Source: Candidatus Altarchaeum sp. CG2_30_32_3053
Lineage (GTDB): Archaea; Altiarchaeota; Altiarchaeia; Altiarchaeales; Altiarchaeaceae
NCBI GenBank assembly: GCA_001873845.1
Contig: MNZY01000237.1
Span: 1 to 42,453, forward strand
Length of the DNA: 42,453 nt
Direction of reading: 5' to 3'
Shown here: positions 23,001 through 42,453 of the stretch, in pieces
Position numbering within the stretch: the stretch's first letter is position 1
Layout: every line of letters begins with the position of its first letter
Notes under the pieces: generated by a model
What the model was told of the DNA's origin: nothing
The model's input: the letters and a program-made list of their open reading frames with translations, nothing else
Database searches by the model: none
Program-made: the position numbers and the translations under genes

Positions 23001-26000
23001 GGGAATTGGTATGAATAATGCAGATGTTTCTATTTCAAAGGTTAGCTGTTCAGCGAACATAACAACAGGAAATTATCCGAACATAGCTGGTGGAAGGTTA
23101 AACCGGGGAGAAGAGTGCGTAATCAGATATACTTTTAAATTGCCGGATAATGCATCGGGTCTGTATCAAAATATTGTATATGCAACAGCATCCACGGGAA
23201 CCGGAACAATAAATGAATCGGACAAAGCATATATCAATGTCCTGTATAATCCAAAATACGAGGTATGGAAGATCGCAGATGTCAGCAAAGTAGATATTGG
23301 TGAAAGTGTAAATTTCACAATTTTTGTCAGCAACGAAGGAAATGTACCTTTAAATTTAAGTATTTCAGATGTTCTTCCAAATAATTTCATTAACTTAACA
23401 TCATTAACTTTCATATATACCCTAAATCCCGGGAAAGATAAGAATTACACCGTTATCGCGAAACCAAATTCAGGCGCAGTTGATTCTGAAAACTGTGTGG
23501 TTGTAAACGCAACAGCCCCAAAAAATGAGGTCTTACATAAAACAGCTTGCACGGGAATTCACATCAAAAAGCCATTACTCATTATTCAAAAATGGACAAC
23601 AACCCCGTCAAGATTGCCAAACGAAAAAGCAGAATTTTATGTTATGATAAAAAACGACGGCGAGGGAATTGCAAAGAATGTAAAAGTTACAGATGAATCA
23701 GACATGACAAATTCAAGTGCTGTCATTTCTTATGAAGGAGATTGTGATTCTTTAACTATTGGCACATATCCAAGTTTAATTTCAAATGGAACTTTACATT
23801 CAAACCAATATTGCATCATTCATTATAATATGACGGTTCCAAATGTTGATGGATATACAAATATTGCAACTTTAAATGCAACCGATGCCGGGAATAAACA
23901 ATTGAATATACAAAAATCAGAAGCTTATGTTTTGGCATCCGGAATTACTCCTTCATTTTCTGTTGAGAAGTTCGTTTCCGATGGAAATCCTTTTGCAGAG
24001 AGGGGAACTTATAAGAATTTCACAGTTAAAGTGAAGAATCTTGGAAATGTTTATATAAATATTACAGATATTGATGAAACACCCCCTTATGGATTTAATT
24101 GCGCGGCTGGAAATATTGCCGGAACAACATTACAGCCGGGAGAAACAACAACAACAAATATTACCTGTTTTGTTAATAAGTCCGCTTTGGTAGGAGTTAA
24201 TGTTAATGAAGTCAGAGTATGGGCAATTGGAAATGGAGGAGTGAACATTTCCCAGAGTGATAACGAGTTTGTTATTGTTCAGGAGCCAAAATTAAAGATA
24301 GAAAAGAAAACAAATAAGAAAAATGCAAAGCCAGGAGATCCCATAACTTATACTCTGAACATTTCAAATGTGGGTGATGCTCCTGCATATAATATTTCAA
24401 TTAAAGATGTGCTGCCAAAAGGATGGAAGCCAACGGGGGGGGAATGGTTATCTTACACATGCGAATTGACTTATACTTCTTCCCGTACAAGCTTTTCACA
24501 GACAACACTTTATTTTACTGGAAATGAATTGGCTCCGGGAGCAAGTTGTAAGATTGTATATAGAATTCCGGTTCCCCCCACTACATCTACAGGAATTTAT
24601 ACAAATTACGCCACTGTTAGTGGTGCAGATAAATCAACAAAAATATTTGGATATAACGATGAAATTACAGCTTATATTAAGGGCTCACCTGTTCTTTATG
24701 TTTCTATGAGCGCGAATGCAACGTATGTAAAAAAAGGAGACACAGTTAAATTTACAACGAGAATTGAAAATTTAGGAGATGTTCAAATGAAAGATATTGT
24801 GGTAGAAATAATTCTCCCGCCGGGTTTTGAAAATTTAACCCAGACAAAAATTTCAGGATTATCATTAGATGCTGGAGCATCAACAGAAGTAAATGTAATA
24901 GCAAAGGTATTGAATGATACAAACGCGACGATCGGAGGAGCTCATGTGGCAAGGGTTTATGTAAATGCAACATCTTTTGGCGGAACAAAACTAAAAGCAG
25001 AAAGTTATGCAACTGTTTACATAACTTCAACACCACTTTCGCTGATTGGAGATATTGATGAAAAAACATTGTTTATGGGAAGTCATTTAAAAAACAGATT
25101 TATTGTTGTTAATCCTTCTATGTTTGATACGCGGGATATAAATTTAACAGTTAAATTGCCAAAGGGTTTAAAATACGATGTAAATTCAACGATGTTTAAC
25201 GGGGTTCCGTTATCGGATGATGAGAGTAATGGAATAGTTACTGAAGAAGACGGAAAACAAACCATTGAATGGAAAAATTTAAGCATGTATTCAAAGTCAG
25301 TTGGAATATTGTCATTTTCTGCTCTTGTTGAAGACGATGTTTCAGGAAAGGTTATTAATGCGTCAATAATTTACAATCAGCATGGAGAAATAAGTATAGT
25401 AGATACAAGCATAACAATAAATCAGGAATTTGTATCAAAGCCATTCTTTTATGTATTTCAAGACAAAGAAAAGGTAAATGTCAATGAGATAATTAAATAT
25501 ACAGTAATCGTTAATGATGAATTTGGCAGGTTAAATGATCCCTTTTTAAAATTAACAGCAAACGGTTTGAAAATTTTGGATGTGGAATTAAAAAACAATG
25601 AAGAAAATAGAACTTATAATGCTGTAATTAATGGAAAAATAATAAATTTAACAAATTTAACACATTCAATAGAAATAGATATCCATAGTTTACCTTTCCC
25701 AACGACAAGTCCAAAATTAAATTTAGATGCAGTTTTAACATACAACGACGGAAGTAAAATAATAAACTTACAGATAAATAAAATTACTGATCTATTAATT
25801 CCTCCGGAGGGAATAATAACAAATGTTGAATCGCAAAATTTAAATCTGTCAATAAATTTAAAGGATGTAAATTTAAATTATACTCTGCACCTAAAAAACG
25901 GGTGGAATTTAATTGGAATTCCGATAATGCCTGAGAAAACAAATTTAGAAGAAATATTGAAGCCAATTGAAGGGAAATATACAGATGTATTTACCTATAA

Positions 26001-26358
26001 CGACAGGTGGAATTACAAAAGCCAGTATATGAATAAGTGGTTTGGCGATTTAAGTGAAATTTTGCCTGGAAAGGGATACTGGATAAAGGTAGATGAAGAT
26101 TGTAATCTGACTATAACAGGAAGCGAAATAGAAAATTTTTCCTTAACTCTTAACAACGGATGGAATTTGATATCATTGCCATCTCTTGACGAAATTAATC
26201 TTGATGATATGGACGGATATACGGATGTTTTCACTTATGATGACAGATGGATTTACAAGAGCAGTTATATGAACAAATGGTTTGGCAACTTAAACACATT
26301 AAATTCAGGAAAGGGATACTGGGTAAAAGTAGAGGAACATAAAATATTTAGTAAATAA
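20002..26358 (+). CDS. Giant (2118 aa) secreted DUF11-repeat surface protein with N-terminal Cys motif and C-terminal twin GWNL/GKGYW module
   Basis: 6.4-kb ORF. The signal-like N-terminus is VAFTFIFISSLALVLFVLNADA|EC. It is followed by CASPACCGVCENYINDSANIS and repeated units such as VKPGESIFYTLNISNEGDAPAYNISIKDVLPKGW. Confidence 0.95.
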   Translation: MNPKVNIRNVAFTFIFISSLALVLFVLNADAECASPACCGVCENYINDSANISVNFPVLIVNKSVNPATFEQGELVEFKIEVLNIGNVSAYELSMKDILNEDLDYVQSKYDNSSSNYLIYKFVFNVTGNGEYSCQKSDGGWFSDSSQCVPKENIDFHYLSDTNELTWGKYGSSGGKELPPKVAYVIKFYARAKENASAGNLTNNVTIKANYDQHQYVCTAPASCQGGSCKGADGGSCPNNGLCYCDNCVSQPSGDCSDTSIKLSDHSDINLPPSITPNLNSSANFTILPKSEIYITKGINSTANKFTVGEIIPFVLNINSNLNETNATLTDVKVTDNLPYGIEFLNATLCNETNNALNSTTQPQLNQNSSDDPQASTILTFNIGNLTKDVSNIKICIYTKVASDASNAYGALKNDARVYASNNQTYETKNLSDAAEKYFYILKPASLKISKKTLTTNVVPNSIATYEITVWNEGDSEAVNITIFDPLPCNFTYINNSCNVTENNTDTNLTCPDENTTEPSFNISKIEGHSRIVFTFNVSVPNNVSGMCGNTIVAEAKDTSGNNLTVNYISQTSYIYTEHGFGYLQVNKEVINNKLFAVGEIVQYKIKVRNSGSVQSVNNVQLKDFLPMGMKFANISIQNCNVSNITGNYSTNGEILICNIGSVVPNETKIYYLNATVMDYKPVMVNKVEVNGSTSNGEQWFKDNIAVYVGKAKLKIEKKANKNNVKPGESIFYTLNISNEGDAPAYNISIKDVLPKGWKPTEGGEWLSYTCELTYTSSRTSFSQTTLYFTGNELAPGASCEIKYRVQAPSNASGGLYQNDAEVSGNDSFGNKLDGDKTYKNVFVYEFRDMRLIKVADKTNIRVGEDVFFTIIVTNTGNVPYSVSLTDELPYGFENNTPISYDFALDRGASKTIHVGATVTNNAIPGLNANCVKASAYMGNKLVLERKDCAFVYVSSPSIDIEKWTITPTLNPGENATFFVRVKNKGTENISNLNLTDSIPGIGMNNADVSISKVSCSANITTGNYPNIAGGRLNRGEECVIRYTFKLPDNASGLYQNIVYATASTGTGTINESDKAYINVLYNPKYEVWKIADVSKVDIGESVNFTIFVSNEGNVPLNLSISDVLPNNFINLTSLTFIYTLNPGKDKNYTVIAKPNSGAVDSENCVVVNATAPKNEVLHKTACTGIHIKKPLLIIQKWTTTPSRLPNEKAEFYVMIKNDGEGIAKNVKVTDESDMTNSSAVISYEGDCDSLTIGTYPSLISNGTLHSNQYCIIHYNMTVPNVDGYTNIATLNATDAGNKQLNIQKSEAYVLASGITPSFSVEKFVSDGNPFAERGTYKNFTVKVKNLGNVYINITDIDETPPYGFNCAAGNIAGTTLQPGETTTTNITCFVNKSALVGVNVNEVRVWAIGNGGVNISQSDNEFVIVQEPKLKIEKKTNKKNAKPGDPITYTLNISNVGDAPAYNISIKDVLPKGWKPTGGEWLSYTCELTYTSSRTSFSQTTLYFTGNELAPGASCKIVYRIPVPPTTSTGIYTNYATVSGADKSTKIFGYNDEITAYIKGSPVLYVSMSANATYVKKGDTVKFTTRIENLGDVQMKDIVVEIILPPGFENLTQTKISGLSLDAGASTEVNVIAKVLNDTNATIGGAHVARVYVNATSFGGTKLKAESYATVYITSTPLSLIGDIDEKTLFMGSHLKNRFIVVNPSMFDTRDINLTVKLPKGLKYDVNSTMFNGVPLSDDESNGIVTEEDGKQTIEWKNLSMYSKSVGILSFSALVEDDVSGKVINASIIYNQHGEISIVDTSITINQEFVSKPFFYVFQDKEKVNVNEIIKYTVIVNDEFGRLNDPFLKLTANGLKILDVELKNNEENRTYNAVINGKIINLTNLTHSIEIDIHSLPFPTTSPKLNLDAVLTYNDGSKIINLQINKITDLLIPPEGIITNVESQNLNLSINLKDVNLNYTLHLKNGWNLIGIPIMPEKTNLEEILKPIEGKYTDVFTYNDRWNYKSQYMNKWFGDLSEILPGKGYWIKVDEDCNLTITGSEIENFSLTLNNGWNLISLPSLDEINLDDMDGYTDVFTYDDRWIYKSSYMNKWFGNLNTLNSGKGYWVKVEEHKIFSK
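22197..22397 (+). repeat. Near-identical ~200-nt intragenic repeat, copy 1 (contains a G8 tract at 22287-22294)
   Basis: Hand alignment to 24348-24545 shows 2 substitutions and one 3-nt indel, while the flanks diverge quickly. Confidence 0.9.
24348..24545 (+). repeat. Near-identical ~200-nt intragenic repeat, copy 2 (contains a G8 tract at 24435-24442)
   Basis: Same as above. The offset between copies is 2151 nt before the indel and 2148 nt after it, both multiples of 3. Confidence 0.9.
25885..26355 (+). other. C-terminal twin module of the 2118-aa protein
   Basis: LHLKNGWNLIGIP...GKYTDVFTYNDRWNYKSQYMNKWFGDLSEILPGKGYWIKVDEDC... then LTLNNGWNLISLP...YTDVFTYDDRWIYKSSYMNKWFGNLNTLNSGKGYWVKVEE. 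The second copy starts at 26143. Confidence 0.85.
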
Positions 26359-26609: not shown

Positions 26610-29600
26610 ATGGATAGAAAAAATTTGTTAAAGGGCAATGACTTTTTTGGAAATTTAAAAAATTCAGGTATTTTAGCTTTGGTTGTAATTGGAGTTGTTT
26701 TGATGTTTTTGATGTCTTCTCTGATGTTTTTGGCATCAGGACTGAACAGAATTTTGAATTTTAATAAAAATAATATTAATCTTTTAAAAAATTTTAAAAT
26801 ATATAAAATGATTGGATATAGGACTAGCTTAAAGCTAGGAGGTATTTTTGCATTAATCGTGGGTTTAATTTTTATTTTTAGTGCGGTTAATGTATCTGCT
26901 GGTGGCTGTTGCTGCTATGCAGGTAGTTGTTTGAATGAAATAAATGATACAGCAAATGTTTCTGCAGCGAATGCGTATTTAAAGGTTGATAAATTTGTAG
27001 ATAAAGACATAGTGCAGGTTGGAGATACAGTTGGTTATACTATAATAGTGAGAAATTTGGGAAATACCACCGCTTATGATGTTACGGTGAATGATACTTT
27101 GCCAATTGATATTTCTAGTGTAACTTTGGGAGATATAAATTATATATATAACATTAATGGAAACGGAGAAATACCAACATGTCAGTTTTTGTCGACAACA
27201 AATAATGAGTCAGGCAAGGTATTGTACTGTAAAATCAATAAGATACCAAAAAAAGATGAAACAGGAGCAAATGTGACAATTTTCTTCGGGGCAAAAGTTA
27301 CTCAACATACGAATGCTCCGATAAATCATACAAATAATGTCAGTGTAAATGGTTTTTATACACCATGTTCGGATACTAATGGCAATATACTTAAAGAAGA
27401 CGGAACCTGCCCGTGTACGAATCTTACTAATTGTAATCAGGTATATGGAGTATCAGATATTGCGACAGTTCAAACAGACCAAGATGGTAGTAATGGATAT
27501 AATGGTTTAAGAGATAATGCAACAGTTTGGATTGTAGGAATAGATGTGACCAAATATGCCACTACCAATTCTACACTTCAGGCAGGTGATGAAGTTGTGT
27601 TCCACATTACTATAACAAATACAGGCGATTTACAGGTTTGCAACATTACAGTTCACGACAGATTGCCTTCGGCACTTGAATTTGTAGATTCTTCCCCGGA
27701 AAATTCATCGCCAGTTACAGGAAGGGATGTTTATTTCAATTTAGGATGTTTGAATGGAAGTTTATCAACAACAATAAATATTACGACAAAGGTTAGCACA
27801 GCTGCAACAACATTATCATCGCTGAGTAATTTTGTTGAAGTTAATGGAACTGTTTATAATGCCAGTGGAAATGCAACAGATATAAATGTTACAGATGATT
27901 ATACTACTCCTCCGCAATATTTTGACAACGAAACAGGAACAAATCAAACCCCGCAGATAGGAAAGGCAACACTTTCTTTAAATAAAATCGCTATGGATCC
28001 GTGGACAAGGCCAAATAGAGAAATTAAGTATCGGGTTGAAGTAGATACAGGCGGTGCAATGGTTTATGGCGCGCAAATAACAGATCATTTACCAGGCGCA
28101 TTTCAATATATGAACAATATTATTCAATTGAATGACGGGGAGTGTACTCCAAACTCTACAACTTCATCTAATTCTACAGGAGAAGTAATATTTAATCTCG
28201 GCAATTTCACAGGGAAATGTATATTTGAATATACAGTTTATGTTCCATGGAATACAAAGGATGGATATTACAGAAATAATCAAACTTTAACTGCGAATGA
28301 TAAAAATAATCAAACATTGGCAAATGTGACTGATAATGCTCCTGTAATTGTTGATGGCAATACAAGATTAACAGTTAATAAAGATGTCGTAAATCCAAGA
28401 ATATTCCAGCCAAACGATATAATTGAATATACTTTAACTGTAAGTAATGAGGGAGATAATGAAATTCACGATGTTAATGTAACTGATTTAATTCCTTATG
28501 GAATGAATTACAGCAGTTCCTGGCTGGAAGGTGGCAATGTTTATATTCCAGGATATGATGAAGCGGCAATCGGTTCTCCAGCATGCCAGATTACATCTCA
28601 GACATGTAATACAACTCATTGTAATGTAACTGTTGGCTGTTGTAATAATGAAATTTATACTTATAATGATATTCCAAATGGAACTTCACAAACAGGAAGT
28701 GCTTCTTGCACCAATTATAATGTATCCTGCAACAACAGTAATCCACCTTCATGTACTATTTCTAATAGCAGTACTTCAACAGTTCAGATTATAGGTGACT
28801 TGAAATATACTGATCCAAGCAAAGGTTATAAAGCAATATGGCACTTTGACATTATTGGTGCCAAGACAACAAAGGTAATACATTTAAATTTAACGATTAC
28901 ATCTGATTCTGTTGGCGGGAGCAGTATGAATAAAGTTGAAGTAACAGGAATTACTCCAAACGGGGATGTTTTGTTATGGAAAGATATCGCTTCCAGTGCG
29001 AGAATAGGAAAGGCAAATTTACTGATAGAGAAATCTTCAGATACTGCAACGATAGCCGCTGGCGAGGAAGTTACTTATACTATTCGTGTTAAAAATATAG
29101 GGGAGGGTTATGCTCAAAACATAACAATTAAAGATGAGCCCGGTTCACAGATGCAATTGGGTGCGATAAGTATGGCATCATGTAATGGTGGTTCATTGTT
29201 ATCAGAGAAATATGAAGGAGGTCCGGCAACTAACTACGGTGACTCTGTAACATATATTCTGAAAAATGTGAGTTTAGCTCCAGGGAAAGAATGTGTAATT
29301 AATTATAAAGCATACACTGCCTCAACATCTCAGGAGGGATTGTATGTAAATAAAGCAACACTTAATTGGAGAGATATGTTTGGAACAGAACAGATGGCTC
29401 TAAGTACAACTGCGGCTGTTATGATATTGCCACCGGATGCTTTGATGAGTATTAGAAAACAAAGTAATGCAACCCGCGCTCAACCCGGAGAGAAGCTTAA
29501 TTACACAATAACTATTGAAAATAAAGGTAATGAAACATTAAGAGATGTTATAATAAACGATACATTGCCAGATGGATTTAAAAATTTGAGTCAAGCGTAC

Positions 29601-35600: not shown

Positions 35601-38168
35601 ACAGTAACCTACAATGCCACTGCAGCAGGTAAAACAAATACGAGTTGTCCATCAATGATCGGAAATGGCAATGTAAGCACTTGTTCAATAACATCTACCG
35701 GGACAGTAATACTTACAAAAACAGCAAATGTGTCTTATGTTCAACCAGGTGAAAGTATAAATTACACTATAACCATCAATAATACAAATGCTGATGTAAA
35801 TATGACAAATATTGTTATTGAAGACATACTGCCACCAGGATTTACTTGTAATAATGTTACAGGATATAGTGGATGTGATTGTGATAATATAACAAATTCA
35901 AATTGTAATCTTGGAAATGGAAATAAGACAATCAACATAATTGCGACTGTTAACAGCAGTGCAAATAACAACACAGCATACAACAATGCAACAATTACCT
36001 ACAATATTACAAGTTTGCCAACAACACAAGAAGGTCAACCTATTACAGTTAGCCAGCACACAACAGTATTCAAACCAGATCTTGGGGTATGGAAAAATAA
36101 CAACATGACGAATATAACGGGAAACAATGTTGCAAATGATGATATGAATGTAACCTATACAATAGTTGTTGTAAATAACGGAGGGGGCGATGCAAAAAAT
36201 GTAACTGTTGAGGATGTGTTACAATCTCCACTTTATCATATAACCGGAGTGGAGAGTGTGGAATGTACAGGCAATACCACATCAGTTACAGTAACTAACA
36301 CATCAGTTGGAACCAATGAAATGAACTTCACATTTAATAGCATAGAAAACGGAACAAAATGTAAGATAACATATAAAGTAAATGTGCCAAGATTTACTAA
36401 TACCTTAACATACACTAATAATGTTACGATAGTGAATGGAACATTTGCAAACGACGAACCTTTGACGGCTGATGAAGGCATAAATAAGACGGACACTTCT
36501 AACTTAATAGTAGCGGGCAAATATGTACATATCTGTCAATTTACCTATTCACAAGGTCCAAATAGTCAAAGTGTTTTTCATATCAAGGCAAAAGTGACAG
36601 AAGACATCTCGGATCAACAAATAACAAATACAGTAAGAGTTAACGGAACCCTAAACAAAGGAACATCTGGGGAAATACCATTATATGCTGAATCCACAAA
36701 GTCGGTCAATTTGGAAAATCCAAATGTAAGCATAGTTAAATGGGCAGATACAGCTGATATAGAGCCGGGACAGGAAGTAACATTCTATGTGCAAATACAG
36801 AATCCATCTGAGACAAATCTGATAAATTTGAGTATTAAAGATATATTGCCAAAGGGTTTTGAATATGTGCATAATAGCAGCAAATTAGAGGGGCAACTGT
36901 TTAATGAATCAAACAGTGCGATATTCAATGTTACTCCAGAAATTTATAATGAATCAAATAACAATACACAGCAAAATATAACCTGGAATGTTAGTAATTT
37001 ATTGCCAAAGACAATTAAACTATTGACTTTCAAAGCAAAGGTAAAATGTAATATTACAGAAGGAGAAAAGAATACAAACAACGTTTGTATTAATGGAACA
37101 ACACACGATGATGAAAGAGTTGGAGCATGCACGAACTACACGATGACAGGACACCTTGCACACCTAACAATAAACAAATATGCTGACAAGGATAAAGTGA
37201 AATGGTTTGATGTTGTTGAATATACTATAGCAATTAAAAATCCAGCGCTTGGTTCCGCTCATTCCATATTGAAAGAAATAAATGATACAATGGCAAAGAA
37301 TTTGAAGTATATCAATAATTCTGCAACAATCAATGGAGAGGTAATTGAACCACAAATTATTGGAAACTACACCGATGGAACAACATTGATATGGAACGGT
37401 TCAAAGATAAATGATACAGCTGTCTGGGTTGGAACAAAGGTTGTTTTGAAATACAGGGTTTTGATAATGCCAGGCTTAAACGGAATCCTTGACAATAATG
37501 TATCATTGGAATACTATGACCCCTTGCCGGGGCACTTTGATCCAGAAGCAGTGTTTAAGGCATCATTTAGAAGTGCCATAGTAAGAGACGGATATGCGCC
37601 AAAACAAAATATTGTTTCAAGCGGAAATGTGAATCTGTTCCTCGGAGATGAGATAAATACACCTGTGACAACTACTACTACAATACACCTGAAACAGGGA
37701 TGGAATTTGATTTCATTACCAATTCAACCGGAGGATACAAATATAGATATGGTTTTGAATAGCATAAAAGGCAAATATACGGATGTGTTCGCTTATGAAG
37801 ACAGATGGGTTTACAAGAGCGAATATATGAATAAGTGGTTTGGCGATTTGAGTAAATTAGAGGCTGGAAAAGGATACTGGATTAAGGTCAACGAAGATTG
37901 CAGTTTAACAATTAACGGAATTATAGCCAAGAGTGCGAATATATCTTTGAAGCAAGGATGGAATTTGGTTGGACCATTGGCAACAACAGGAAAAAGTATT
38001 TCATTGGACAACCTCAATGTGCAATATACAGATATATTCACTTATGAAGACAAATGGGTTTACAAGAGCGAATATATGAACAAGTGGTTTGGCGATTTGA
38101 ATAAATTAGAGGCCGGAAAAGGATACTGGATTAAAGTTGAGAACAATGAGGAGCAGCTTGTTATGTGA
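26610..38168 (+). CDS. Giant (3852 aa) secreted DUF11-repeat surface protein with ~265-aa two-domain super-repeat and C-terminal twin module; alternative start at 26808
   Basis: 11.6-kb ORF. Met67 (ATG 26808) begins a classic signal peptide, MIGYRTSLKLGGIFALIVGLIFIFSAVNVSA|GG. The next segment, CCCYAGSCLNEINDTANVS, aligns with the start of the mature 2118-aa protein. Many units resemble IRPGQDVNYTITVKNTGGGTAYNISIRD and AQPGDSINFTINVTNNGGNTVYNIKVDDILPYGF. Confidence 0.95.
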   Translation: MDRKNLLKGNDFFGNLKNSGILALVVIGVVLMFLMSSLMFLASGLNRILNFNKNNINLLKNFKIYKMIGYRTSLKLGGIFALIVGLIFIFSAVNVSAGGCCCYAGSCLNEINDTANVSAANAYLKVDKFVDKDIVQVGDTVGYTIIVRNLGNTTAYDVTVNDTLPIDISSVTLGDINYIYNINGNGEIPTCQFLSTTNNESGKVLYCKINKIPKKDETGANVTIFFGAKVTQHTNAPINHTNNVSVNGFYTPCSDTNGNILKEDGTCPCTNLTNCNQVYGVSDIATVQTDQDGSNGYNGLRDNATVWIVGIDVTKYATTNSTLQAGDEVVFHITITNTGDLQVCNITVHDRLPSALEFVDSSPENSSPVTGRDVYFNLGCLNGSLSTTINITTKVSTAATTLSSLSNFVEVNGTVYNASGNATDINVTDDYTTPPQYFDNETGTNQTPQIGKATLSLNKIAMDPWTRPNREIKYRVEVDTGGAMVYGAQITDHLPGAFQYMNNIIQLNDGECTPNSTTSSNSTGEVIFNLGNFTGKCIFEYTVYVPWNTKDGYYRNNQTLTANDKNNQTLANVTDNAPVIVDGNTRLTVNKDVVNPRIFQPNDIIEYTLTVSNEGDNEIHDVNVTDLIPYGMNYSSSWLEGGNVYIPGYDEAAIGSPACQITSQTCNTTHCNVTVGCCNNEIYTYNDIPNGTSQTGSASCTNYNVSCNNSNPPSCTISNSSTSTVQIIGDLKYTDPSKGYKAIWHFDIIGAKTTKVIHLNLTITSDSVGGSSMNKVEVTGITPNGDVLLWKDIASSARIGKANLLIEKSSDTATIAAGEEVTYTIRVKNIGEGYAQNITIKDEPGSQMQLGAISMASCNGGSLLSEKYEGGPATNYGDSVTYILKNVSLAPGKECVINYKAYTASTSQEGLYVNKATLNWRDMFGTEQMALSTTAAVMILPPDALMSIRKQSNATRAQPGEKLNYTITIENKGNETLRDVIINDTLPDGFKNLSQAYWGNFNCSNMPNGTCVRDINSDKSNYTGEGIGGFTTVTLSIEAIVTSNTTEGLNTNKVTITAKRPSGTPVKGSSSHILQVNKPHISITKWASTTMREPGQNVTFYIEVKNTGAGDAKNITITDDATPFEHIGNVSVVSGDCTVNKSGDGNITTFWINDNGTFNAYKTCIFKYLMKVPANTPDGTYTNNASLSYQDLNNTEFSKSAGTDVLVTINLFPDVEKIANDTSLQPGDRVNFTINVRNYGSATMTNGTVTDTLPPGFRCLNASGITNGINCSCVNDTTAICNLTDLVGNTISNPLSMWVEAKVNGSATEGSNENNVSLNGTRPDGLPINRTTEAKVFVNEPKPQLEIYKWTDTIKATPNSTVIYYILVKNTGDGDVYNLTINDTMDFGSITNYSTIPNGSADCNTSTKSCNISHLSSAGQCQIKLIALINENATDGTHNNTVNVSGFMKGGTEINKTKLNDTESINVEADVKLTVTKKANTTEVNAGDNVTYTVIVRNDGVNRVMVNVTDNAPLGFTCVNKTPNESVWINGNSLETFTFECNVNSSATQGNNTVVVNGVAENNQTFDANGTTTIVLNTPKLEIIKEAVTGTVEQNGIATYKIIVRNTGTAPVKNISITDRGDGGGGTFTTALGGPSLDTAASTGCTGVNSGGLYLSNSSPHYHEVNFTTNGTMNPGQQCVFTYTLTVNSTAQIGNYTNNATITGAYHPVDNSSYTPTPEPKDNATIRVIPQMNVSFTKTGNATAEPGQSVTFTINITNNNAGANMTDVVFNDTLPDGFNCTSNSTQRIPANTGPNINCSCDGRQINCNIETIENSSTVIINITADVNSSAELSSTNRANVTYNVTNTTLITSEASHTVTILKPQLSVLKENNATGVIRPGQDVNYTITVKNTGGGTAYNISIRDVLDDGLTHTSVSNISCNGLTNSSTGTNAIDFNISSLANNSNCKFNITVHVPEQVNNSVFGNTINITDAQFGDGTHLNSTYGIGENATSDITVQAFTNVSVVKSANPTSAQPGDSINFTINVTNNGGNTVYNIKVDDILPYGFNPNCTTLSPHNYCNCNESTRKINCTFPNSTVLSVISANVTVNSSANPLSTNTANVSYDLPNGTTQQTDNPGQTTVTVNKPNLTIQKTPNNPKASRDQNISFEIRIKNIGTGTAHNILIQDVLPSANMRHISNGTNVSGCSQSIIIANPLNTNTTTFTLDNLTAGQECIFNYTVYIDENISDGNYTNIATITGGKFGDDSYMDSSYGNNSNSNATVEVTTTIIPSIEKIPYNDKMQPGDTINFTIIIKNNGNNDWKNVAVKDVLPAGFIYNNTINVTPSTGGYTNITYNSTTRELNYTGVTVPKFGNWTVIVVANVTSGASSPSTNRVNASSPDNRSVATVATVVVDKPALIVSKEPLLLTYLPGDNATYRIKITNTGTGDAFNVTMEDAFADLKFYHNGNESISIAHCGTNNNTNVSITSGNGTNSAIFALNDTLAGQENCEFTYTVRVDERHEDGLYANNAKVNSTMGDGTKLPVAEDSAQVLIKADVSMRVTKTSNATDQKVNAGDYINFTITVYENGNSPIYDVNVSDTVPYGCVVTNVTNNSNVNGSWDGRNVNFIIGKINNRSHVDLNITCYINHSMTKGWNTNSVRVVAKKPNGDEIYGSASTQIRMLLPDISWTKESLNKTILAGQKVTYKIKVTNKGDGTAHNLTIVDYLPKGDEGNWTYASGTNINDSCGYNWNATNVSNDGNIVKFFLDKMNGSENPAGTECAFTFEVQIPHGTTSVMYANTIGGNWSYGDINNNTPKATNYISNQTPGESNVYVYAGGGIIIQKESDKEVYQYGDIINYTITVYSNGIPTTNLTVTDVIPKGLRLTECPGSAKTEPSASSPTTPFIDFANNSFNYSITNTLIAKLSAVNNNTNIQENDTVLWTANITNDAVSNATMTNVTLVYSFGNDLNVTMNTTSQGTCTRNNDTQVTCNIGDIALGNTVQVNITTNATNNTSVNGTPTVTYNATAAGKTNTSCPSMIGNGNVSTCSITSTGTVILTKTANVSYVQPGESINYTITINNTNADVNMTNIVIEDILPPGFTCNNVTGYSGCDCDNITNSNCNLGNGNKTINIIATVNSSANNNTAYNNATITYNITSLPTTQEGQPITVSQHTTVFKPDLGVWKNNNMTNITGNNVANDDMNVTYTIVVVNNGGGDAKNVTVEDVLQSPLYHITGVESVECTGNTTSVTVTNTSVGTNEMNFTFNSIENGTKCKITYKVNVPRFTNTLTYTNNVTIVNGTFANDEPLTADEGINKTDTSNLIVAGKYVHICQFTYSQGPNSQSVFHIKAKVTEDISDQQITNTVRVNGTLNKGTSGEIPLYAESTKSVNLENPNVSIVKWADTADIEPGQEVTFYVQIQNPSETNLINLSIKDILPKGFEYVHNSSKLEGQLFNESNSAIFNVTPEIYNESNNNTQQNITWNVSNLLPKTIKLLTFKAKVKCNITEGEKNTNNVCINGTTHDDERVGACTNYTMTGHLAHLTINKYADKDKVKWFDVVEYTIAIKNPALGSAHSILKEINDTMAKNLKYINNSATINGEVIEPQIIGNYTDGTTLIWNGSKINDTAVWVGTKVVLKYRVLIMPGLNGILDNNVSLEYYDPLPGHFDPEAVFKASFRSAIVRDGYAPKQNIVSSGNVNLFLGDEINTPVTTTTTIHLKQGWNLISLPIQPEDTNIDMVLNSIKGKYTDVFAYEDRWVYKSEYMNKWFGDLSKLEAGKGYWIKVNEDCSLTINGIIAKSANISLKQGWNLVGPLATTGKSISLDNLNVQYTDIFTYEDKWVYKSEYMNKWFGDLNKLEAGKGYWIKVENNEEQLVM
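37683..38165 (+). other. C-terminal twin module of the 3852-aa protein
   Basis: IHLKQGWNLISLP...GKYTDVFAYEDRWVYKSEYMNKWFGDLSKLEAGKGYWIKVNEDC... then ISLKQGWNLVGP...YTDIFTYEDKWVYKSEYMNKWFGDLNKLEAGKGYWIKVENN. The second copy starts at 37941. Confidence 0.85.
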
Positions 38169-38201
38169 TCCATAACAAGTTTTTTATTTTTTTATTTTTT
38201 T
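38155..38201 (+). terminator. Hairpin plus long T-tracts; intrinsic-terminator-like element enclosing the stop codon
   Basis: cttgttatg (38157-38165) pairs perfectly with cataacaag (38171-38179). The loop is tgatc and contains the TGA stop. Runs of T6, T7 and T7 follow (38180-38201). Confidence 0.6.
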
Positions 38202-38273
38202 AAATTTTTTCTTTTTCTGTTTCTTTTTATTCTGTAGAAATTTTAATAAATTTTTAAAATAGGATTTTATGAA

Positions 38274-39557
38274 ATGAATAAATTTTTTTTATTGGGAGTT
38301 TTAATAGTTTTATCTTTGCTTATGCAAGAGATATCAGCAGAATGTAATGCAACAGTTTGGGGAAAAATTGGCTTTTCTGGATGTAATAACAGTGCGGCAA
38401 TAAATGCAACAATCCAAATAATGAGCGGATTCAAACTATTAAATTCCACACAAACAGACGAAAATGGAATTTATAACACAAGTATTTCTTTTAACGGCAC
38501 ATCAAAAAACATAAGTATAAGAATGATGAAAAAGAACGAAATAAAAACATATTATGACCTCACAATTAATTGTGAGGATAATATTTCTAAAAATCACTCT
38601 ATTATTAAAGAACCAATACAATATTTTAGCGGGAATATTAAAATGATTGACAACGGTGATTTTAAAGATATTAATGAAACAGACAAAGTAGAAGTAGAAG
38701 TACATTTAAAACTTATTTTAGAGGATAGTAAAAATGTTAATGCGTCAGAAAGTATAAATTCTACCATAACAAGCAAGGGCAGTTATACTTATCGACTATC
38801 CCCAAATAGTTTTTATTGTTCTTGGCCAACAAAATTATATTTATGGGCAGAGCCAACAGAAAATTATTATTATAGAATATTTGATTATGAATATTTTGTT
38901 GCTATCAATTCTTCAAATTATACATCATTAGCAATTTGCAGCTATGATCATAATCCAATAACAAAAGATTTTATCAGATTTCCGCGAAAAAGTGTCAATG
39001 ATAACTGCAGTTACATTGATGAATGCAAAAGCAATATTTGTAATCAAATTTCTCACACATGCCAATGTACGAGCAATTCAGATTGTGCAGATAGTCAGAT
39101 TTGCAATGCAACAAAACAATGTCAAAATTTAATTTGTTCACCACCAAATGGAAGTGTTTATAATCATACCTGTGTGAATTGCACAGATAATGCAACTTGT
39201 GGAGAGCAATTTTGTAATTTAACTGTACATGCTTGTCAACCAATATATTGCACAGGAGATGATTTATGTCGCAGTAATCAAATTTGTTGTAATACAACAA
39301 TGATACATCATCAATGCAAAAATTTGCATTGCTTTGACAATCAGAGGGCATTTAATCATACATGTGTTAATTGCAGTTCATTTGATTTTGATAATAATAA
39401 CATAACAGATATTTTTGATGCTGTTTATCTTTTAGAATATATTAGTGGCGAAAAAAAAGACATTTCACCAGACATTTCACCAGGATGCGCAGATGTCGAC
39501 AATAATGGAATCGTTGATTTATTTGATGCAGCATATATTTTATATTATTTATTATAG
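38274..39557 (+). CDS. Secreted modular protein: CarboxypepD_reg-like N-domain, Cys-rich knot repeats, C-terminal dockerin
   Basis: 427-aa ORF. The signal peptide is FFLLGVLIVLSLLMQEISA|EC. TQTDENGIYNTSISF is typical of carboxypeptidase-regulatory-like beta-sandwiches. The Cys-rich repeats include DECKSNICNQISHTCQC, SDCADSQICNATKQCQNLIC and others. The dockerin at the C-terminus is listed separately. Confidence 0.85.
   Translation: MNKFFLLGVLIVLSLLMQEISAECNATVWGKIGFSGCNNSAAINATIQIMSGFKLLNSTQTDENGIYNTSISFNGTSKNISIRMMKKNEIKTYYDLTINCEDNISKNHSIIKEPIQYFSGNIKMIDNGDFKDINETDKVEVEVHLKLILEDSKNVNASESINSTITSKGSYTYRLSPNSFYCSWPTKLYLWAEPTENYYYRIFDYEYFVAINSSNYTSLAICSYDHNPITKDFIRFPRKSVNDNCSYIDECKSNICNQISHTCQCTSNSDCADSQICNATKQCQNLICSPPNGSVYNHTCVNCTDNATCGEQFCNLTVHACQPIYCTGDDLCRSNQICCNTTMIHHQCKNLHCFDNQRAFNHTCVNCSSFDFDNNNITDIFDAVYLLEYISGEKKDISPDISPGCADVDNNGIVDLFDAAYILYYLL
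39381..39554 (+). other. Dockerin-type module (two EF-hand-like Ca-binding loops, each followed by a helix)
   Basis: DFDNNNITDIFDAVYLLEYI and DVDNNGIVDLFDAAYILYYL both place D/D/N/D/D at loop positions 1, 3, 5, 9 and 12, as in the type I dockerin consensus D.N.DG.V...D...L. The two loops are separated by a 17-residue linker at the extreme C-terminus. Confidence 0.75.
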
Positions 39558-39564
39558 TTTTTTT
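39558..39564 (+). terminator. T7 run immediately after the stop codon
   Basis: tag is followed by ttttttt. Oligo-T termination is plausible, but the context is AT-rich. Confidence 0.3.
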
Positions 39565-39636
39565 AATTTTATAAAATATAAATTTAGTAATAATTTTTAA
39601 AATTATTTGTTGTATATTTTAATTAATTATATTAAG

Positions 39637-42453
39637 ATGGATAAAAAAATTTTATTTATAGGTTTAGTAATAATTATTGTGGCACACATATACTCAGTAT
39701 CGGCCGACAATTGTTCTGCGACAGTATCCGGAAATGTAAATTTTTATGGACAAAATAACAGTGTGGCAATAAATGCAACGATACAAATAATTAGCGGATT
39801 CAACATATTAAATTCCACACAAACAGACGAAAATGGATTTTATAACACAAGTATTTCTTTTAGTGGCACATCAAAAAACATAGCCATAAAAATGATAAAA
39901 GAAGGAGCTTATAGTTCAGAGGGAAAAAATTATACTTGGATCATTGATATGAATAATATGGCTTCAATTAATTGCAGTGATAATATTTCTAGAAATTATT
40001 CTATTGAAAAGTGTTTATCAGCAATTCCTTATAAAGGATCTATCAAATACGAAAACTTTGATAATATTTATGAAAAAGATGATGGAGATGAAGTAAAAAT
40101 ACATTTAGCAGCGATTCCAAGAGACAGTGGAGGAATATATATAGAAGATACAAATTTTACAAAGACGGATGAAAATGGTTCTGCTTATGTTCTATCCACA
40201 GATACATACACTTTTTGGCCAATGAATTTATATCTATGGGCAGAGCCAACAAAAAATTATTATTATAGGATATTTGATGAGGATAATTTTGTTGCCATCA
40301 GCTCTCCAAATTATACATCTTTAGCGAGTTGTAGTTCGTCTACTACAGATATAACAAAGAATTTTATAAGATTTTCAAGAAAAAATACAAGCGATAACTG
40401 CAATTATGATGATGAATGCAAAAGTAATATATGTTATAATGGAAATTGTGCATCATCAAAGAAAAATATTAATGAAACATGCGCATCAAATGATGAATGT
40501 TCAAGCAACAATTGCAACAATTACAGCCACAGATGTCTTCCAAATATAACAAATTTCTGCTACAGTGATAATGATTGCTGCAATTCATCTTCATTTAATG
40601 ATGGCTTATGTAATTTAATTCAGTTCTGTAACAGCACAAATTTCTGTCAAAACGCCATGTCAAATTCAAATGTTTCAAATTCAAATATAACTGATGGAGC
40701 AATTGTAAGTAATTCAACAATAAACAAGTCAAATGTTAATAATTCCATAGTAAATCATTCTACATTGATATACTCAATGATAAAGAACTCAACAGTAAAC
40801 AATTCAAGCTTATACGCATCAGTTGTATTAATAAGCAGCATTACAAACAATTCAGCATTATATAACTCCACAGCAAACAATTCAATAATAAGTAACTCAA
40901 CAGTACAAAATTCAAACATAGCTAATTCGTCTGCATTAAATAGCACCATTACAAACAATTCAGCATTTTATAATTCAACAGCAAACAATTCAATAATAAG
41001 TAACTCAACAATTGCTAATGCAACAATAACACATTCTCAACTTACAAATTCAGCATCAGTCAATTCATTAATTAACAATTCCTTTACTAATAATTCAATA
41101 GTAAATAATTCAATAGTAAATAATTCAATAGTAAATAATTCAACAATAACCGAACAATCAGTCCTTTACAATTCAACCATCAACACTTCAAACCTTACTG
41201 ATTCAAATGTTTCAAATTCAAATATAACCGAAAATTCAACACTTTACAATTCAACAATCATAAATTCAAATTTGATTGATAGTAATGCATCAAATTTAAC
41301 TGCAAGCAATTCGCATATGACAAATTCAACAATCGTCAATGCAACAATATTAAATTCTCAACTTACATATTCAACATCAGTCAATTCATCAATTAATAAT
41401 TCCTTTATTAATAATTCAGCAGTAAATAATTCATCAGTAAATAATTCAACAATAACCGAACAATCAATCCTTTACAATTCAACCATCAACACTTCAAACC
41501 TTACTGATTCAAATGTTTCAAATTCAAATATAACAAACGAAGCAAGTGTAAGTAACTCAACAATAAATAATTCAGAATTATATAACTCCACAATAGGAAA
41601 TTCAATAATAAACAACTCAACCGCGTCTGTTTCAAATGTTTCAAATTCAACTATAACCGAAAATTCAACCTTTTACAATTCAACAATTGCTAATTCAGAA
41701 ATATTAAATTCTCAACTTACAAATTCAACATCAGTCAATTCATCAATTAACAATTCCTTTACTAATAATTCAATAGTAAATAATTCATCAATTATTAGTT
41801 CAGAAATATCAAATTCATCACTTCCATCCGGATTAAACATTACCCACGCAATAATAAATAACAACATTATAACAAGCGGAAATGTAATAACCGCCGATGG
41901 AACAAATGTAACAGTAAATGTAAAAACATCTGGAACTTACATAAACGGAACATTTTACAATAATACTTATGCTATAATTTATCAAAATGGTACAGTTGCT
42001 ACTGTTGCGCCGTTGCAAGGAAACAACATAACCGGCTCAACTATTGATAACATTTCAAGCATTGGCAATTCAAATGTTACCTATTCAAATGTGACAAATT
42101 CAACTATAAGCAATTCAAACTTAGATAACTCAACGGTAAATAATTCAATTGTAACAAACGGTTTAGAAGTAAGTAATTCAACTATAAGTGATTCAAATGT
42201 AAACAATTCAACTGTAACCGATTCAAATATTTCAAATTCAAATATTACAGATTCTACATTAGATAATTCAACTACAGGCAATTCAACAATTGCTAATTCA
42301 GAAATATTAAATTCTCAACTTGCAAATTCAGCATTAGTCAATTCATCAATTAACTATTCCTCTATTAATAATTCAATAGTAAATAATTCATCAGTAAATA
42401 ATTCAGCAATAACAGAACAATCAATTCTTTACAATTCAACCATCAGCACTTCA
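39637..42453 (+). CDS. Partial (>=939 aa, 3' end outside the window) secreted paralog of the 38274 gene, with a long N-S-x-[ILV] pentapeptide-like solenoid in place of the dockerin
   Basis: It is not in the ORF track because no stop is reached. I translated it codon by codon from ATG 39637 to 42453 (2817 nt, 939 codons) and found no in-frame stop. The N-terminus MDKKILFIGLVIIIVAHIYSVSA|DNCSATVSGNVNFYGQNNSVAINATIQIISGFNILNSTQTDENGFYNTSISFSGTSKNI aligns closely with the 38274 product. Confidence 0.85.
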   Translation, partial: MDKKILFIGLVIIIVAHIYSVSADNCSATVSGNVNFYGQNNSVAINATIQIISGFNILNSTQTDENGFYNTSISFSGTSKNIAIKMIKEGAYSSEGKNYTWIIDMNNMASINCSDNISRNYSIEKCLSAIPYKGSIKYENFDNIYEKDDGDEVKIHLAAIPRDSGGIYIEDTNFTKTDENGSAYVLSTDTYTFWPMNLYLWAEPTKNYYYRIFDEDNFVAISSPNYTSLASCSSSTTDITKNFIRFSRKNTSDNCNYDDECKSNICYNGNCASSKKNINETCASNDECSSNNCNNYSHRCLPNITNFCYSDNDCCNSSSFNDGLCNLIQFCNSTNFCQNAMSNSNVSNSNITDGAIVSNSTINKSNVNNSIVNHSTLIYSMIKNSTVNNSSLYASVVLISSITNNSALYNSTANNSIISNSTVQNSNIANSSALNSTITNNSAFYNSTANNSIISNSTIANATITHSQLTNSASVNSLINNSFTNNSIVNNSIVNNSIVNNSTITEQSVLYNSTINTSNLTDSNVSNSNITENSTLYNSTIINSNLIDSNASNLTASNSHMTNSTIVNATILNSQLTYSTSVNSSINNSFINNSAVNNSSVNNSTITEQSILYNSTINTSNLTDSNVSNSNITNEASVSNSTINNSELYNSTIGNSIINNSTASVSNVSNSTITENSTFYNSTIANSEILNSQLTNSTSVNSSINNSFTNNSIVNNSSIISSEISNSSLPSGLNITHAIINNNIITSGNVITADGTNVTVNVKTSGTYINGTFYNNTYAIIYQNGTVATVAPLQGNNITGSTIDNISSIGNSNVTYSNVTNSTISNSNLDNSTVNNSIVTNGLEVSNSTISDSNVNNSTVTDSNISNSNITDSTLDNSTTGNSTIANSEILNSQLANSALVNSSINYSSINNSIVNNSSVNNSAITEQSILYNSTISTS
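40660..42453 (+). repeat. Coding 15-nt (pentapeptide) periodic repeat array with ~100-nt higher-order repeats, interrupted at ~41815-42040
   Basis: The AATTCA (Asn-Ser) hexamer recurs about every 15 nt. gtaaataattcaata appears twice in exact tandem from 41101, and a third copy matches in its first 12 nt. Long near-identical blocks lie at 41134-41229 and 41440-41535 (period 306), with a partial copy at 42397-42453. A second block family starts near 41009, 41327, 41686 and 42286. Confidence 0.9.

Follow-up and report, generated by a model that had tools for sequence, protein, structure and literature searches.

The stretch of DNA examined here, called the window throughout, comprises 42,453 nucleotides of Candidatus Altarchaeum sp. 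CG2_30_32_3053 (contig MNZY01000237.1) and carries five same-strand genes of interest: three for giant proteins, one for a dockerin protein that we call DOC, and an open reading frame (ORF) that begins at 39637 and is cut by the window end. Our subject is the tail of DOC, residues F370–L427, which corresponds exactly to positions 39381–39554 and is closed by the stop codon TAG at 39555–39557. The original prediction, made from the letters alone, placed a twin EF-hand dockerin of type I at the extreme C-terminus of a small, secreted, Cys-rich protein next to giant proteins, and, the type aside, this description holds on every count, including the loops, which are present as written. Both loops have aspartate or asparagine at positions 1, 3, 5, 9, and 12 and each runs into a hydrophobic/aromatic stretch, giving DFDNNNITDIFD followed by AVYLLEYI and DVDNNGIVDLFD followed by AAYILYYL; position 6 of loop 1 is asparagine, not glycine. 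Two 20-residue segments of the tail are identical at 12 of 20 positions (counted by eye), and the loops start 36 residues apart in DOC, compared with 31–32 in homologues without a duplication of DISP in the linker. A regular expression for two such loops 20–40 residues apart had one match in the 13,617 residues of window proteins and one in the six-frame translation, with 0.003 matches expected per shuffled set, making this the single twin pattern in the window.

Profile searches give the tail the same identity. Against Pfam Dockerin_1 (PF00404), the hidden Markov model (HMM) that had been proposed as a check, the tail by itself reaches 24.4 bits (E 3.5e-5; positions 2–57 of the 57 in the profile), above the curated gathering cut-off of 22.9 bits, and all seven tails of the family match it (7/7 at E ≤ 1), the window tail being the best of them. 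A profile of the family tails run against the sequences of the PDB has only dockerins as its top matches (8x39/8x3a with E 0.001, ScaH in 8ajy, and ScaB in 4uyq/4uyp), and the single full-length DOC sequence finds 4uyq_B best, over residues 371–427 (E 0.03). HMMER, run exhaustively over 1.84 billion representatives, returned 64 tail matches at E ≤ 1e-3; leaving aside the family member P0002, Dockerin_1 was found by Pfam in 35 of the 63 remote matches scanned, and EF-hand families in most of the others. A word-indexed homologue search with a 57-residue tail profile gave no matches, and an NCBIfam search returned nothing for the dockerin protein. In a low-confidence AlphaFold2 (AF2) model of the tail, helices lie at residues 377–390 and 419–426, where dockerin helices would fall. 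Generic EF-hand, FG-GAP, and thrombospondin-type repeats were considered as better labels and rejected: they match only at E ≥ 0.3, whereas Dockerin_1 spans the whole tail. With this support from Pfam, the PDB, and family conservation, the tail appears to be a genuine dockerin-type module, well supported and borderline at the cut-off for the full-length protein; the sequence cannot assign “type I” to it.

DOC itself belongs to a small family. Only nine relatives were found among 5.8 billion clustered proteins, with 47–99% identity and from groundwater and other metagenomes; two of the nine carry the UniRef label “Dockerin domain-containing protein”. Within this family conservation is highest in the tail, at 76–95% identity compared with 62–73% for the whole protein (alignment-based, same homologues), and both loops are invariant or nearly so. 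The DISP duplication is found only in the window DOC and in the 99%-identical P0001, the other homologues having one copy. A search with the whole-protein alignment against the contigs of the GTDB species genomes found no relative, so the DOC family is missing from the species representatives, where only the tail family occurs. One homologue, P0008, lies on CCXY01000058 and so in the metagenome-assembled genome (MAG) of Candidatus Altiarchaeum hamiconexum, CCXY01 being the assembly of Candidatus Altiarchaeum MSI_2012 (PMC8324899). Along with the GC content and the label on a relative of the giant 3 C-terminus, both given below, this places the window in the Altiarchaeales.

Outside the DOC family, the nearest tails are on proteins to which NCBI gives the name Altiarchaeales or Altarchaeaceae; the annotation of one reads “dockerin type I domain-containing protein”. 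The tail profile, run against 185,579 species genomes (one per species), found 15 loci, all of them in three Altiarchaeal MAGs: Candidatus Altarchaeum sp. HURL_140 (8), GA_1_1 (3), and Altiarchaeales archaeon A3 (4). In every Altiarchaeal case the tail is at the extreme C-terminus, and the arrangement of a secreted protein whose tail ends at the stop codon is seen in DOC and in more than 20 related Altiarchaeal proteins. The carriers are NosD/β-helix proteins, proteins combining DUF333, Peptidase_C1, and NosD, as well as Peptidase_C25 and MopE-like Cys-repeat proteins, a transglutaminase-like protein, and a CARDB protein; several functionally different subunits carry the same type of tail, as in cellulosome-like systems. 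One module that closes many otherwise unrelated secreted proteins bears the hallmark of a tag for attachment or targeting, and the peptidases and transglutaminase-like proteins that bear it suggest a surface-attached set of proteases. Glycoside hydrolases were found neither in the window nor among the scanned tail-bearing proteins, the sole carbohydrate-related match being a weak one of the galactose-binding-like AGA-YXIM_GBD in giant 1 (30.5 bits, cut-off 27). A dockerin-tagged secreted set without glycoside hydrolases is thus real at the level of the lineage. The literature searched for Altiarchaeal dockerins and cohesins contained nothing relevant, and this lineage-restricted, mostly sub-threshold tail family with its peptidase and β-helix cargo appears not to have been described previously.

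The Altiarchaeal tails follow the approximate pattern C..C[TS].[FY]DFDNN..[IV]DIFD[AV]V.ALE.LSG....I....C[SA]..NNNGIDL.D.FALI, in which a cysteine is kept before each loop. The equivalents in DOC are C364/C367 and C405, and the cysteine equivalent to Cys405 is invariant in the broader alignment of Altiarchaeal tails. From this conservation, a disulfide clasp may run across the module, the predicted pair in DOC being C367 and C405; it would be a variant feature relative to known dockerins.

Ahead of the tail, DOC has the build of a secreted protein (Table 1). Its N-terminus is predicted to be a Sec signal peptide, a call based on the only hydrophobic segment of the protein and on the SAEC site (S21, A22, E23, C24), which is invariant in the family alignment; no further transmembrane-like segment follows. 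A membrane anchor of the PGF-CTERM/archaeosortase type was considered for DOC and ruled out, there being no hydrophobic 19-residue window at the C-terminus and no match in NCBIfam. Residues 23 to ~237 are all-β in the AF2 model, with a predicted local distance difference test (pLDDT) mostly of 70–95 and a dip to 48 at residues 161–170, and Foldseek relates these domains to sandwiches of the pilin, adhesin, and SlaB types (E down to 1.6e-6). Most of the 28 cysteines (22/28) lie in the Cys-rich region, which consists of repeated units each ending in NHTC(V/I)NC. One unit of ~65 residues (~286–350; 39129–39323) is cleanly missing in the homologues P0004, P0007, and P0008, which shows that the region is modular. 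The window DOC also has an extra cysteine (CC at 338–339) relative to P0001. N-X-S/T sequons number 25 compared with 7.9 ± 2.4 in shuffles, and DOC is probably a heavily N-glycosylated archaeal surface protein, as far as sequons can predict it; the proteome is N-rich in general (11–20% Asn in these proteins), and the GC content of the sequence is ~0.26–0.35.

Table 1. Features of DOC and its neighborhood, with tail-bearing carriers from other Altiarchaeal loci (positions in the window unless a locus is named; aa, amino acids).
Feature	Position	Strand	Basis or content
Giant 1, 5585 aa	3158..19915	+	Non-repeat aa 1–1045; 29 DUF11/CLIPPER-type repeats; tandem module 19400–19912
Giant 2, 2118 aa	20002..26358	+	13 DUF11/CLIPPER-type repeats; tandem module 25879–26355
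Giant 3, 3852 aa	26610..38168	+	27 DUF11/CLIPPER-type repeats; tandem module 37677–38165; immediately upstream of DOC
DOC gene, 427 aa	38274..39557, stop included	+	ORF list; nine homologues; family alignment
Signal peptide, aa 1–22, MNKFFLLGVLIVLSLLMQEISA	38274..38339	+	Sole hydrophobic segment; probable cleavage before E23-C24
Two N-terminal β-sandwich domains, ~aa 23–237	38340..38984	+	AF2, Foldseek; common to downstream paralogue
Cys-rich region, aa 245–367	39006..39374	+	Cys positions, family indel; AF2 pLDDT ~50–80
Dockerin-type module, aa 370–427, extreme C-terminus	39381..39554	+	PF00404, PDB dockerins, family conservation
Putative Ca-binding loop 1, DFDNNNITDIFD, aa 371–382	39384..39419	+	Sequence and regular expression
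Putative Ca-binding loop 2, DVDNNGIVDLFD, aa 407–418	39492..39527	+	Sequence and regular expression; conserved Cys405 precedes
12-bp tandem duplication, GACATTTCACCA x2	39459..39482	+	Perfect repeat; encodes DISP-DISP in the linker between the loops
Downstream paralogue, at least 939 aa in the window	39637..42453 (runs off end)	+	DOC-like start, then N/S-rich repeats
Papain-type (Peptidase_C1 with DUF333 and NosD), gingipain-type (Peptidase_C25), and transglutaminase-like carriers	L017 2364–4661; L018 988–3351; L019 5745–8114; L023 6381–8249		

The three giants upstream of DOC are, for most of their length, arrays of one repeat type. Pfam shows DUF11 and related families in them, the repeats were mapped with a local iterative HMM, and sequence searches of all three against the PDB match only 9ifr, the crystal structure of CLIPPER, and no cohesin chain. 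DUF11 is now called CLIPPER, an isopeptide-bond family present in fibrillar adhesin stalks (bioRxiv 10.1101/2025.04.25.650565). Sequons are strongly enriched in the giants, as in giant 1 with 339 observed and 117 ± 10 in shuffles. Only residues 1–1045 and 1581–1747 of giant 1 and the last 200–310 residues of each giant fall outside the repeats; the two former segments (3158–6292 and 7898–8398) match no family and are probably the functional “head” of a fiber. At the start of the giant 3 ORF (26610–26920) there are two hydrophobic segments, and the homologue in locus L002 begins near the second (…GIFALISGLVFIFSVVNVSAGGCCCY). For this reason the true start of giant 3 is probably an internal methionine (MIGYRTSLKLGG...), from which an ordinary signal peptide with cleavage after VSA would result.

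All three giants close with two tandem copies of a module of ~85 residues, GWNLISLP...YTDVFTY.DRW.YKS.YMNKWFGDL...GKGYWIKV, that has no sequence match in Pfam, NCBIfam, or the PDB; the literature searched for the GWNLIS motif contained nothing relevant. AF2 models the tandem pair, from a 123-sequence alignment, as one compact all-β domain (pLDDT 92.4, predicted template modeling score 0.89), for which Foldseek finds no relative in the PDB (best E 0.13, TM < 0.25, no cohesin listed). The module has 292 relatives in bacteria and archaea, many of them on short proteins, and in the members whose sequence was inspected it is C-terminal, behind many different N-terminal domains; one that closely resembles the giant 3 C-terminus carries the label Candidatus Altarchaeaceae archaeon. 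In one metagenomic protein, P0183, a signal peptide and a genuine cohesin (40.7 bits) precede the same tandem module. This order, together with the head–stalk–anchor layout of CLIPPER fibrillar adhesins, makes it the simplest reading that the tandem module would be a cell-envelope anchor and not a dockerin receptor. The module has the look of a C-terminal anchor or adaptor domain that is widespread and undescribed.

Downstream of DOC, the paralogue shares with it the signal peptide, the two β-sandwich domains (~240 residues), and the start of the Cys-rich region, after which N/S-rich, pentapeptide-like repeats run for hundreds of residues and match Pentapeptide_3/4 weakly; its 939 residues contain 109 sequons. 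No dockerin was seen in the part of the paralogue within the window, and its full-length homologue in L001 (1606 residues, Cys-rich at its end and containing MopE-like and Big_13 domains) has none. The DOC N-terminal domain also starts the next gene in L001 and L002. The order of giant DUF11 protein, DOC, and paralogue recurs in 4/4 loci (the window, L001, L002, and L005), in each of which the gene upstream of DOC ends in the tandem module, and this recurrence supports a functional neighborhood. Directly after the stop of giant 3 (38155–38230), an 11-pair hairpin is followed by long oligo-T tracts; an A/T-rich stretch lies ahead of the DOC start and a T7 run at 39558–39566 after its stop. The hairpin with its oligo-T tracts and the T7 run both resemble terminators. 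These signals suggest that DOC may be its own transcription unit, with the genes of the cluster perhaps separate units; a sigma-70 promoter scan is uninformative for an archaeon.

Altiarchaeales are abundant, uncultivated carbon fixers of the subsurface that have hami and a double membrane and form biofilms. What the analysis shows directly is the features of the sequence, its HMM membership, the secretion signal, how the tail is distributed among lineages, the architectures, and the synteny; Ca2+ binding, a docking function, and any link to the giants are inferred. On balance, we think it reasonably probable that the dockerin-type tail is a Ca2+-dependent, non-covalent attachment tag for a shared surface receptor and that DOC is an accessory of the fiber system. 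The tail would fold on binding Ca2+ outside the cell and, once folded, would dock DOC and the other tagged proteins onto a common cell-surface receptor, with the two β-sandwich domains and the Cys-rich region as the displayed part of DOC. The probable accessory role in a giant DUF11/CLIPPER surface-fiber system follows from the place of the DOC gene in a conserved same-strand cluster with the giants and the long paralogue.

Several results weigh against this reading. Full-length DOC reaches only 18.0 bits (E 0.0033) with PF00404, under the cut-off that the isolated tail passes; the AF2 model of the whole protein, made from a shallow 10-sequence alignment, has a pLDDT of 30–38 in the tail; the second loop is one residue short in many of the related Altiarchaeal tails; and most of those tails, when isolated, score 0–19 bits with PF00404, so that standard annotation largely misses them. 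A separate transcription unit for DOC would make its adjacency to the giants weaker evidence of a functional link. Finally, the searches for a cohesin, which covered the window and ~250 kb of related loci rather than whole genomes, all came back empty: PF00963 matched no window protein at E ≤ 0.1 and none of the isolated unassigned pieces of the giants at E ≤ 10; the verified cohesin P0183 found nothing in the window in phmmer with filters off (--max); the precomputed Pfam annotation of neighbor genes at six related places includes no cohesin; and 34 secreted proteins from ~250 kb of Altiarchaeal loci gave none in Pfam at E < 2.6e-4.

These searches bear directly on the remainder of the original prediction, namely that a dockerin implies a cohesin-like receptor, that unassigned β-sandwich segments of the giants are the obvious candidates, for example the first ~1600 residues of ORF1 (giant 1), and that a plug-in architecture without glycoside hydrolases results. 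The last of these survives as far as the tail shared by many secreted Altiarchaeal proteins is concerned and is unsupported where it places a cohesin in the giants. The implication from dockerin to cohesin was too strong, dockerin and cohesin modules being present in many non-cellulolytic bacteria and archaea according to what PMC9012536 relays of Peer et al. (2009). A cryptic cohesin-like β-sandwich in the neighboring giants, such as the N-terminus of giant 1, would provide a self-contained scaffold for the plug-in, and both the adjacency kept in 4/4 loci and the two segments of giant 1 without a family match (residues 1–1045 and 1581–1747) speak for it, yet we hold it to be decidedly improbable. 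From residue 1046 on, giant 1 is mostly DUF11-type repeat, and residues 1–1045 have no PF00963 match; neither PF00963, the PDB (CLIPPER 9ifr only), nor phmmer with a bona fide cohesin gives any signal in the giants, and the modeled module, the shared C-terminal tandem domain to which the fold test was confined, does not have a cohesin fold. The tail is moreover found on many proteins encoded far from any giant. A cohesin in the neighboring giants is not supported. The tandem “GWNL...GYW” module could instead be a receptor that is not a cohesin: it stands last in all three giants and, in L001, L002, and L005, in the gene immediately upstream of DOC, and it is a confident, compact β domain without known structural relative. 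We find this quite unlikely, however, since its 292 matches are spread across bacteria and archaea, with many on short proteins, its place after a genuine cohesin in P0183 fits an envelope anchor better by analogy with SLH–cohesin scaffoldins, the head, CLIPPER stalk, and C-terminal anchor layout of fibrillar adhesins (bioRxiv 10.1101/2025.04.25.650565) points the same way, it was not seen in the other Altiarchaeal loci carrying tail-tagged genes, and adjacency is trivial for any gene downstream of the 3′ end of a giant.

The tail might also have no protein partner, being a Ca2+-binding cap, a stabilizer, a vestigial dockerin, or a binder of a glycan or lipid component of the envelope. The empty cohesin searches and the degenerate second loop of many Altiarchaeal tails would fit, as would the modules of unclear role in many non-cellulolytic organisms that PMC9012536 reports from Peer et al. 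(2009). Nevertheless, we consider this unlikely, because conservation is higher in the tail than elsewhere in DOC, its constant place as the last module of otherwise unrelated secreted proteins is what characterizes a targeting or attachment tag and not a stabilizer, and the cohesin search covered only a fraction of any genome. Chance resemblance, in which an Asp/Asn-rich low-complexity stretch mimics EF-hand loops, draws some plausibility from the N-rich proteome and from HMM scores near threshold; against it are the one twin pattern observed where 0.003 are expected, the match over the full length of the profile, the (nearly) invariant loops, and remote matches that are mostly dockerins, all of which make it very unlikely, to the point of being negligible. 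A further reading is, we believe, a long shot: a lineage-specific, Cys-clasped tag and a non-cohesin receptor, perhaps the tandem “GWNL...GYW” domain or a cryptic fold elsewhere, might assemble a surface complex of the Altiarchaeales, in which cysteine peptidases, β-helix proteins, and Cys-rich adaptors such as DOC would sit on giant isopeptide-bonded fibers at the surface of a double-membraned, biofilm-forming host.

Dockerins outside cellulosomes are known and poorly understood. The DOC tail resembles the cellulosomal dockerins (PF00404; ScaB in 4uyp/4uyq, ScaH in 8ajy) in its length of ~58 residues and its place at the very C-terminal end of a secreted protein, in a duplicated EF-hand-like loop of 12 residues that has D/N at positions 1, 3, 5, 9, and 12 and leads each time into a helix-forming segment, in an internal two-fold symmetry (the 12/20 identical residues), and in a match to the whole HMM profile. 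It differs from them in having cysteines before each loop (C364/C367 and C405) and hydrophobic residues at positions 10–11 (I-F and L-F), in a score just above threshold, in an archaeal host, and in its surroundings, with no glycoside hydrolase or carbohydrate-binding module in the DOC window and no scaffoldin or cohesin in the sequence examined. Anchoring scaffoldins consist of a cohesin and a cell-surface anchor such as an S-layer homology (SLH) domain. P0183 is like them, with a signal peptide, a cohesin, and the C-terminal tandem module, and shows that this module can carry a cohesin as SLH domains do. It comes from a metagenome and lies outside the window, and the Altiarchaeal sequence examined yielded no cohesin-bearing protein of this sort.

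Closer parallels come from other archaea. Non-cellulosomal archaeal dockerins and cohesins have been known since Archaeoglobus fulgidus and are abundant in anaerobic methanotrophic (ANME) archaea, where many non-cellulolytic proteins are dockerin-tagged, and archaeal dockerin–cohesin pairs have been shown to bind (PMC9012536, which cites Bayer 1999, Haimovitz 2008, and Peer 2009 for archaeal dockerin/cohesin proteins). As relayed there, Peer et al. (2009) reported that the archaea surveyed by then had no multi-cohesin scaffoldins. Dockerins in archaea outside cellulosomes are thus a known kind, to which the Altiarchaeal tail adds. Like those of A. fulgidus and ANME-1/-2 (PMC9012536), the Altiarchaeal dockerins are on secreted proteins unrelated to cellulose, with several tagged architectures per genome and a presumed function in surface assembly. 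Three differences stand out: cohesins are recognizable in A. fulgidus and ANME, where single ANME proteins have up to 5, whereas none was found in the Altiarchaeal sequence examined; the cargo in the Altiarchaeales consists of NosD/β-helix proteins, papain- and gingipain-type peptidases, and Cys-rich adaptors instead of ABC substrate-binding proteins; and most Altiarchaeal tails have diverged too far to reach the Pfam cut-off. The giants, for their part, are like the CLIPPER fibrillar adhesins (bioRxiv 10.1101/2025.04.25.650565; 9ifr) in their long tandem arrays, the head of giant 1, and a C-terminal module, although they end in a tandem β domain instead of an OmpA-like or sortase anchor, and DOC itself is without a DUF11 repeat.

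What the locus contributes is a single lineage-restricted, dockerin-type tail shared by secreted peptidases, β-helix proteins, and the Cys-rich DOC, and such a shared tag is a concrete handle on cell-surface assembly in the Altiarchaeales. The idea of the neighboring giants as scaffoldins is corrected, these being CLIPPER-type fibrillar proteins. Of greater novelty in the window may be the tandem domain at the C-termini of the giants, which is widespread and undescribed; the identity of the receptor is the other point worth following. At the head of the cluster, a 301-residue ORF (2017–2922) combines a signal peptide with a short Cys-containing, β-rich segment, a long low-complexity repeat rich in Q/N/S/T, and a transmembrane segment at the C-terminus with RHKK after it; its sole Pfam match, Rifin, looks spurious, and its product is likely a membrane-anchored surface protein.

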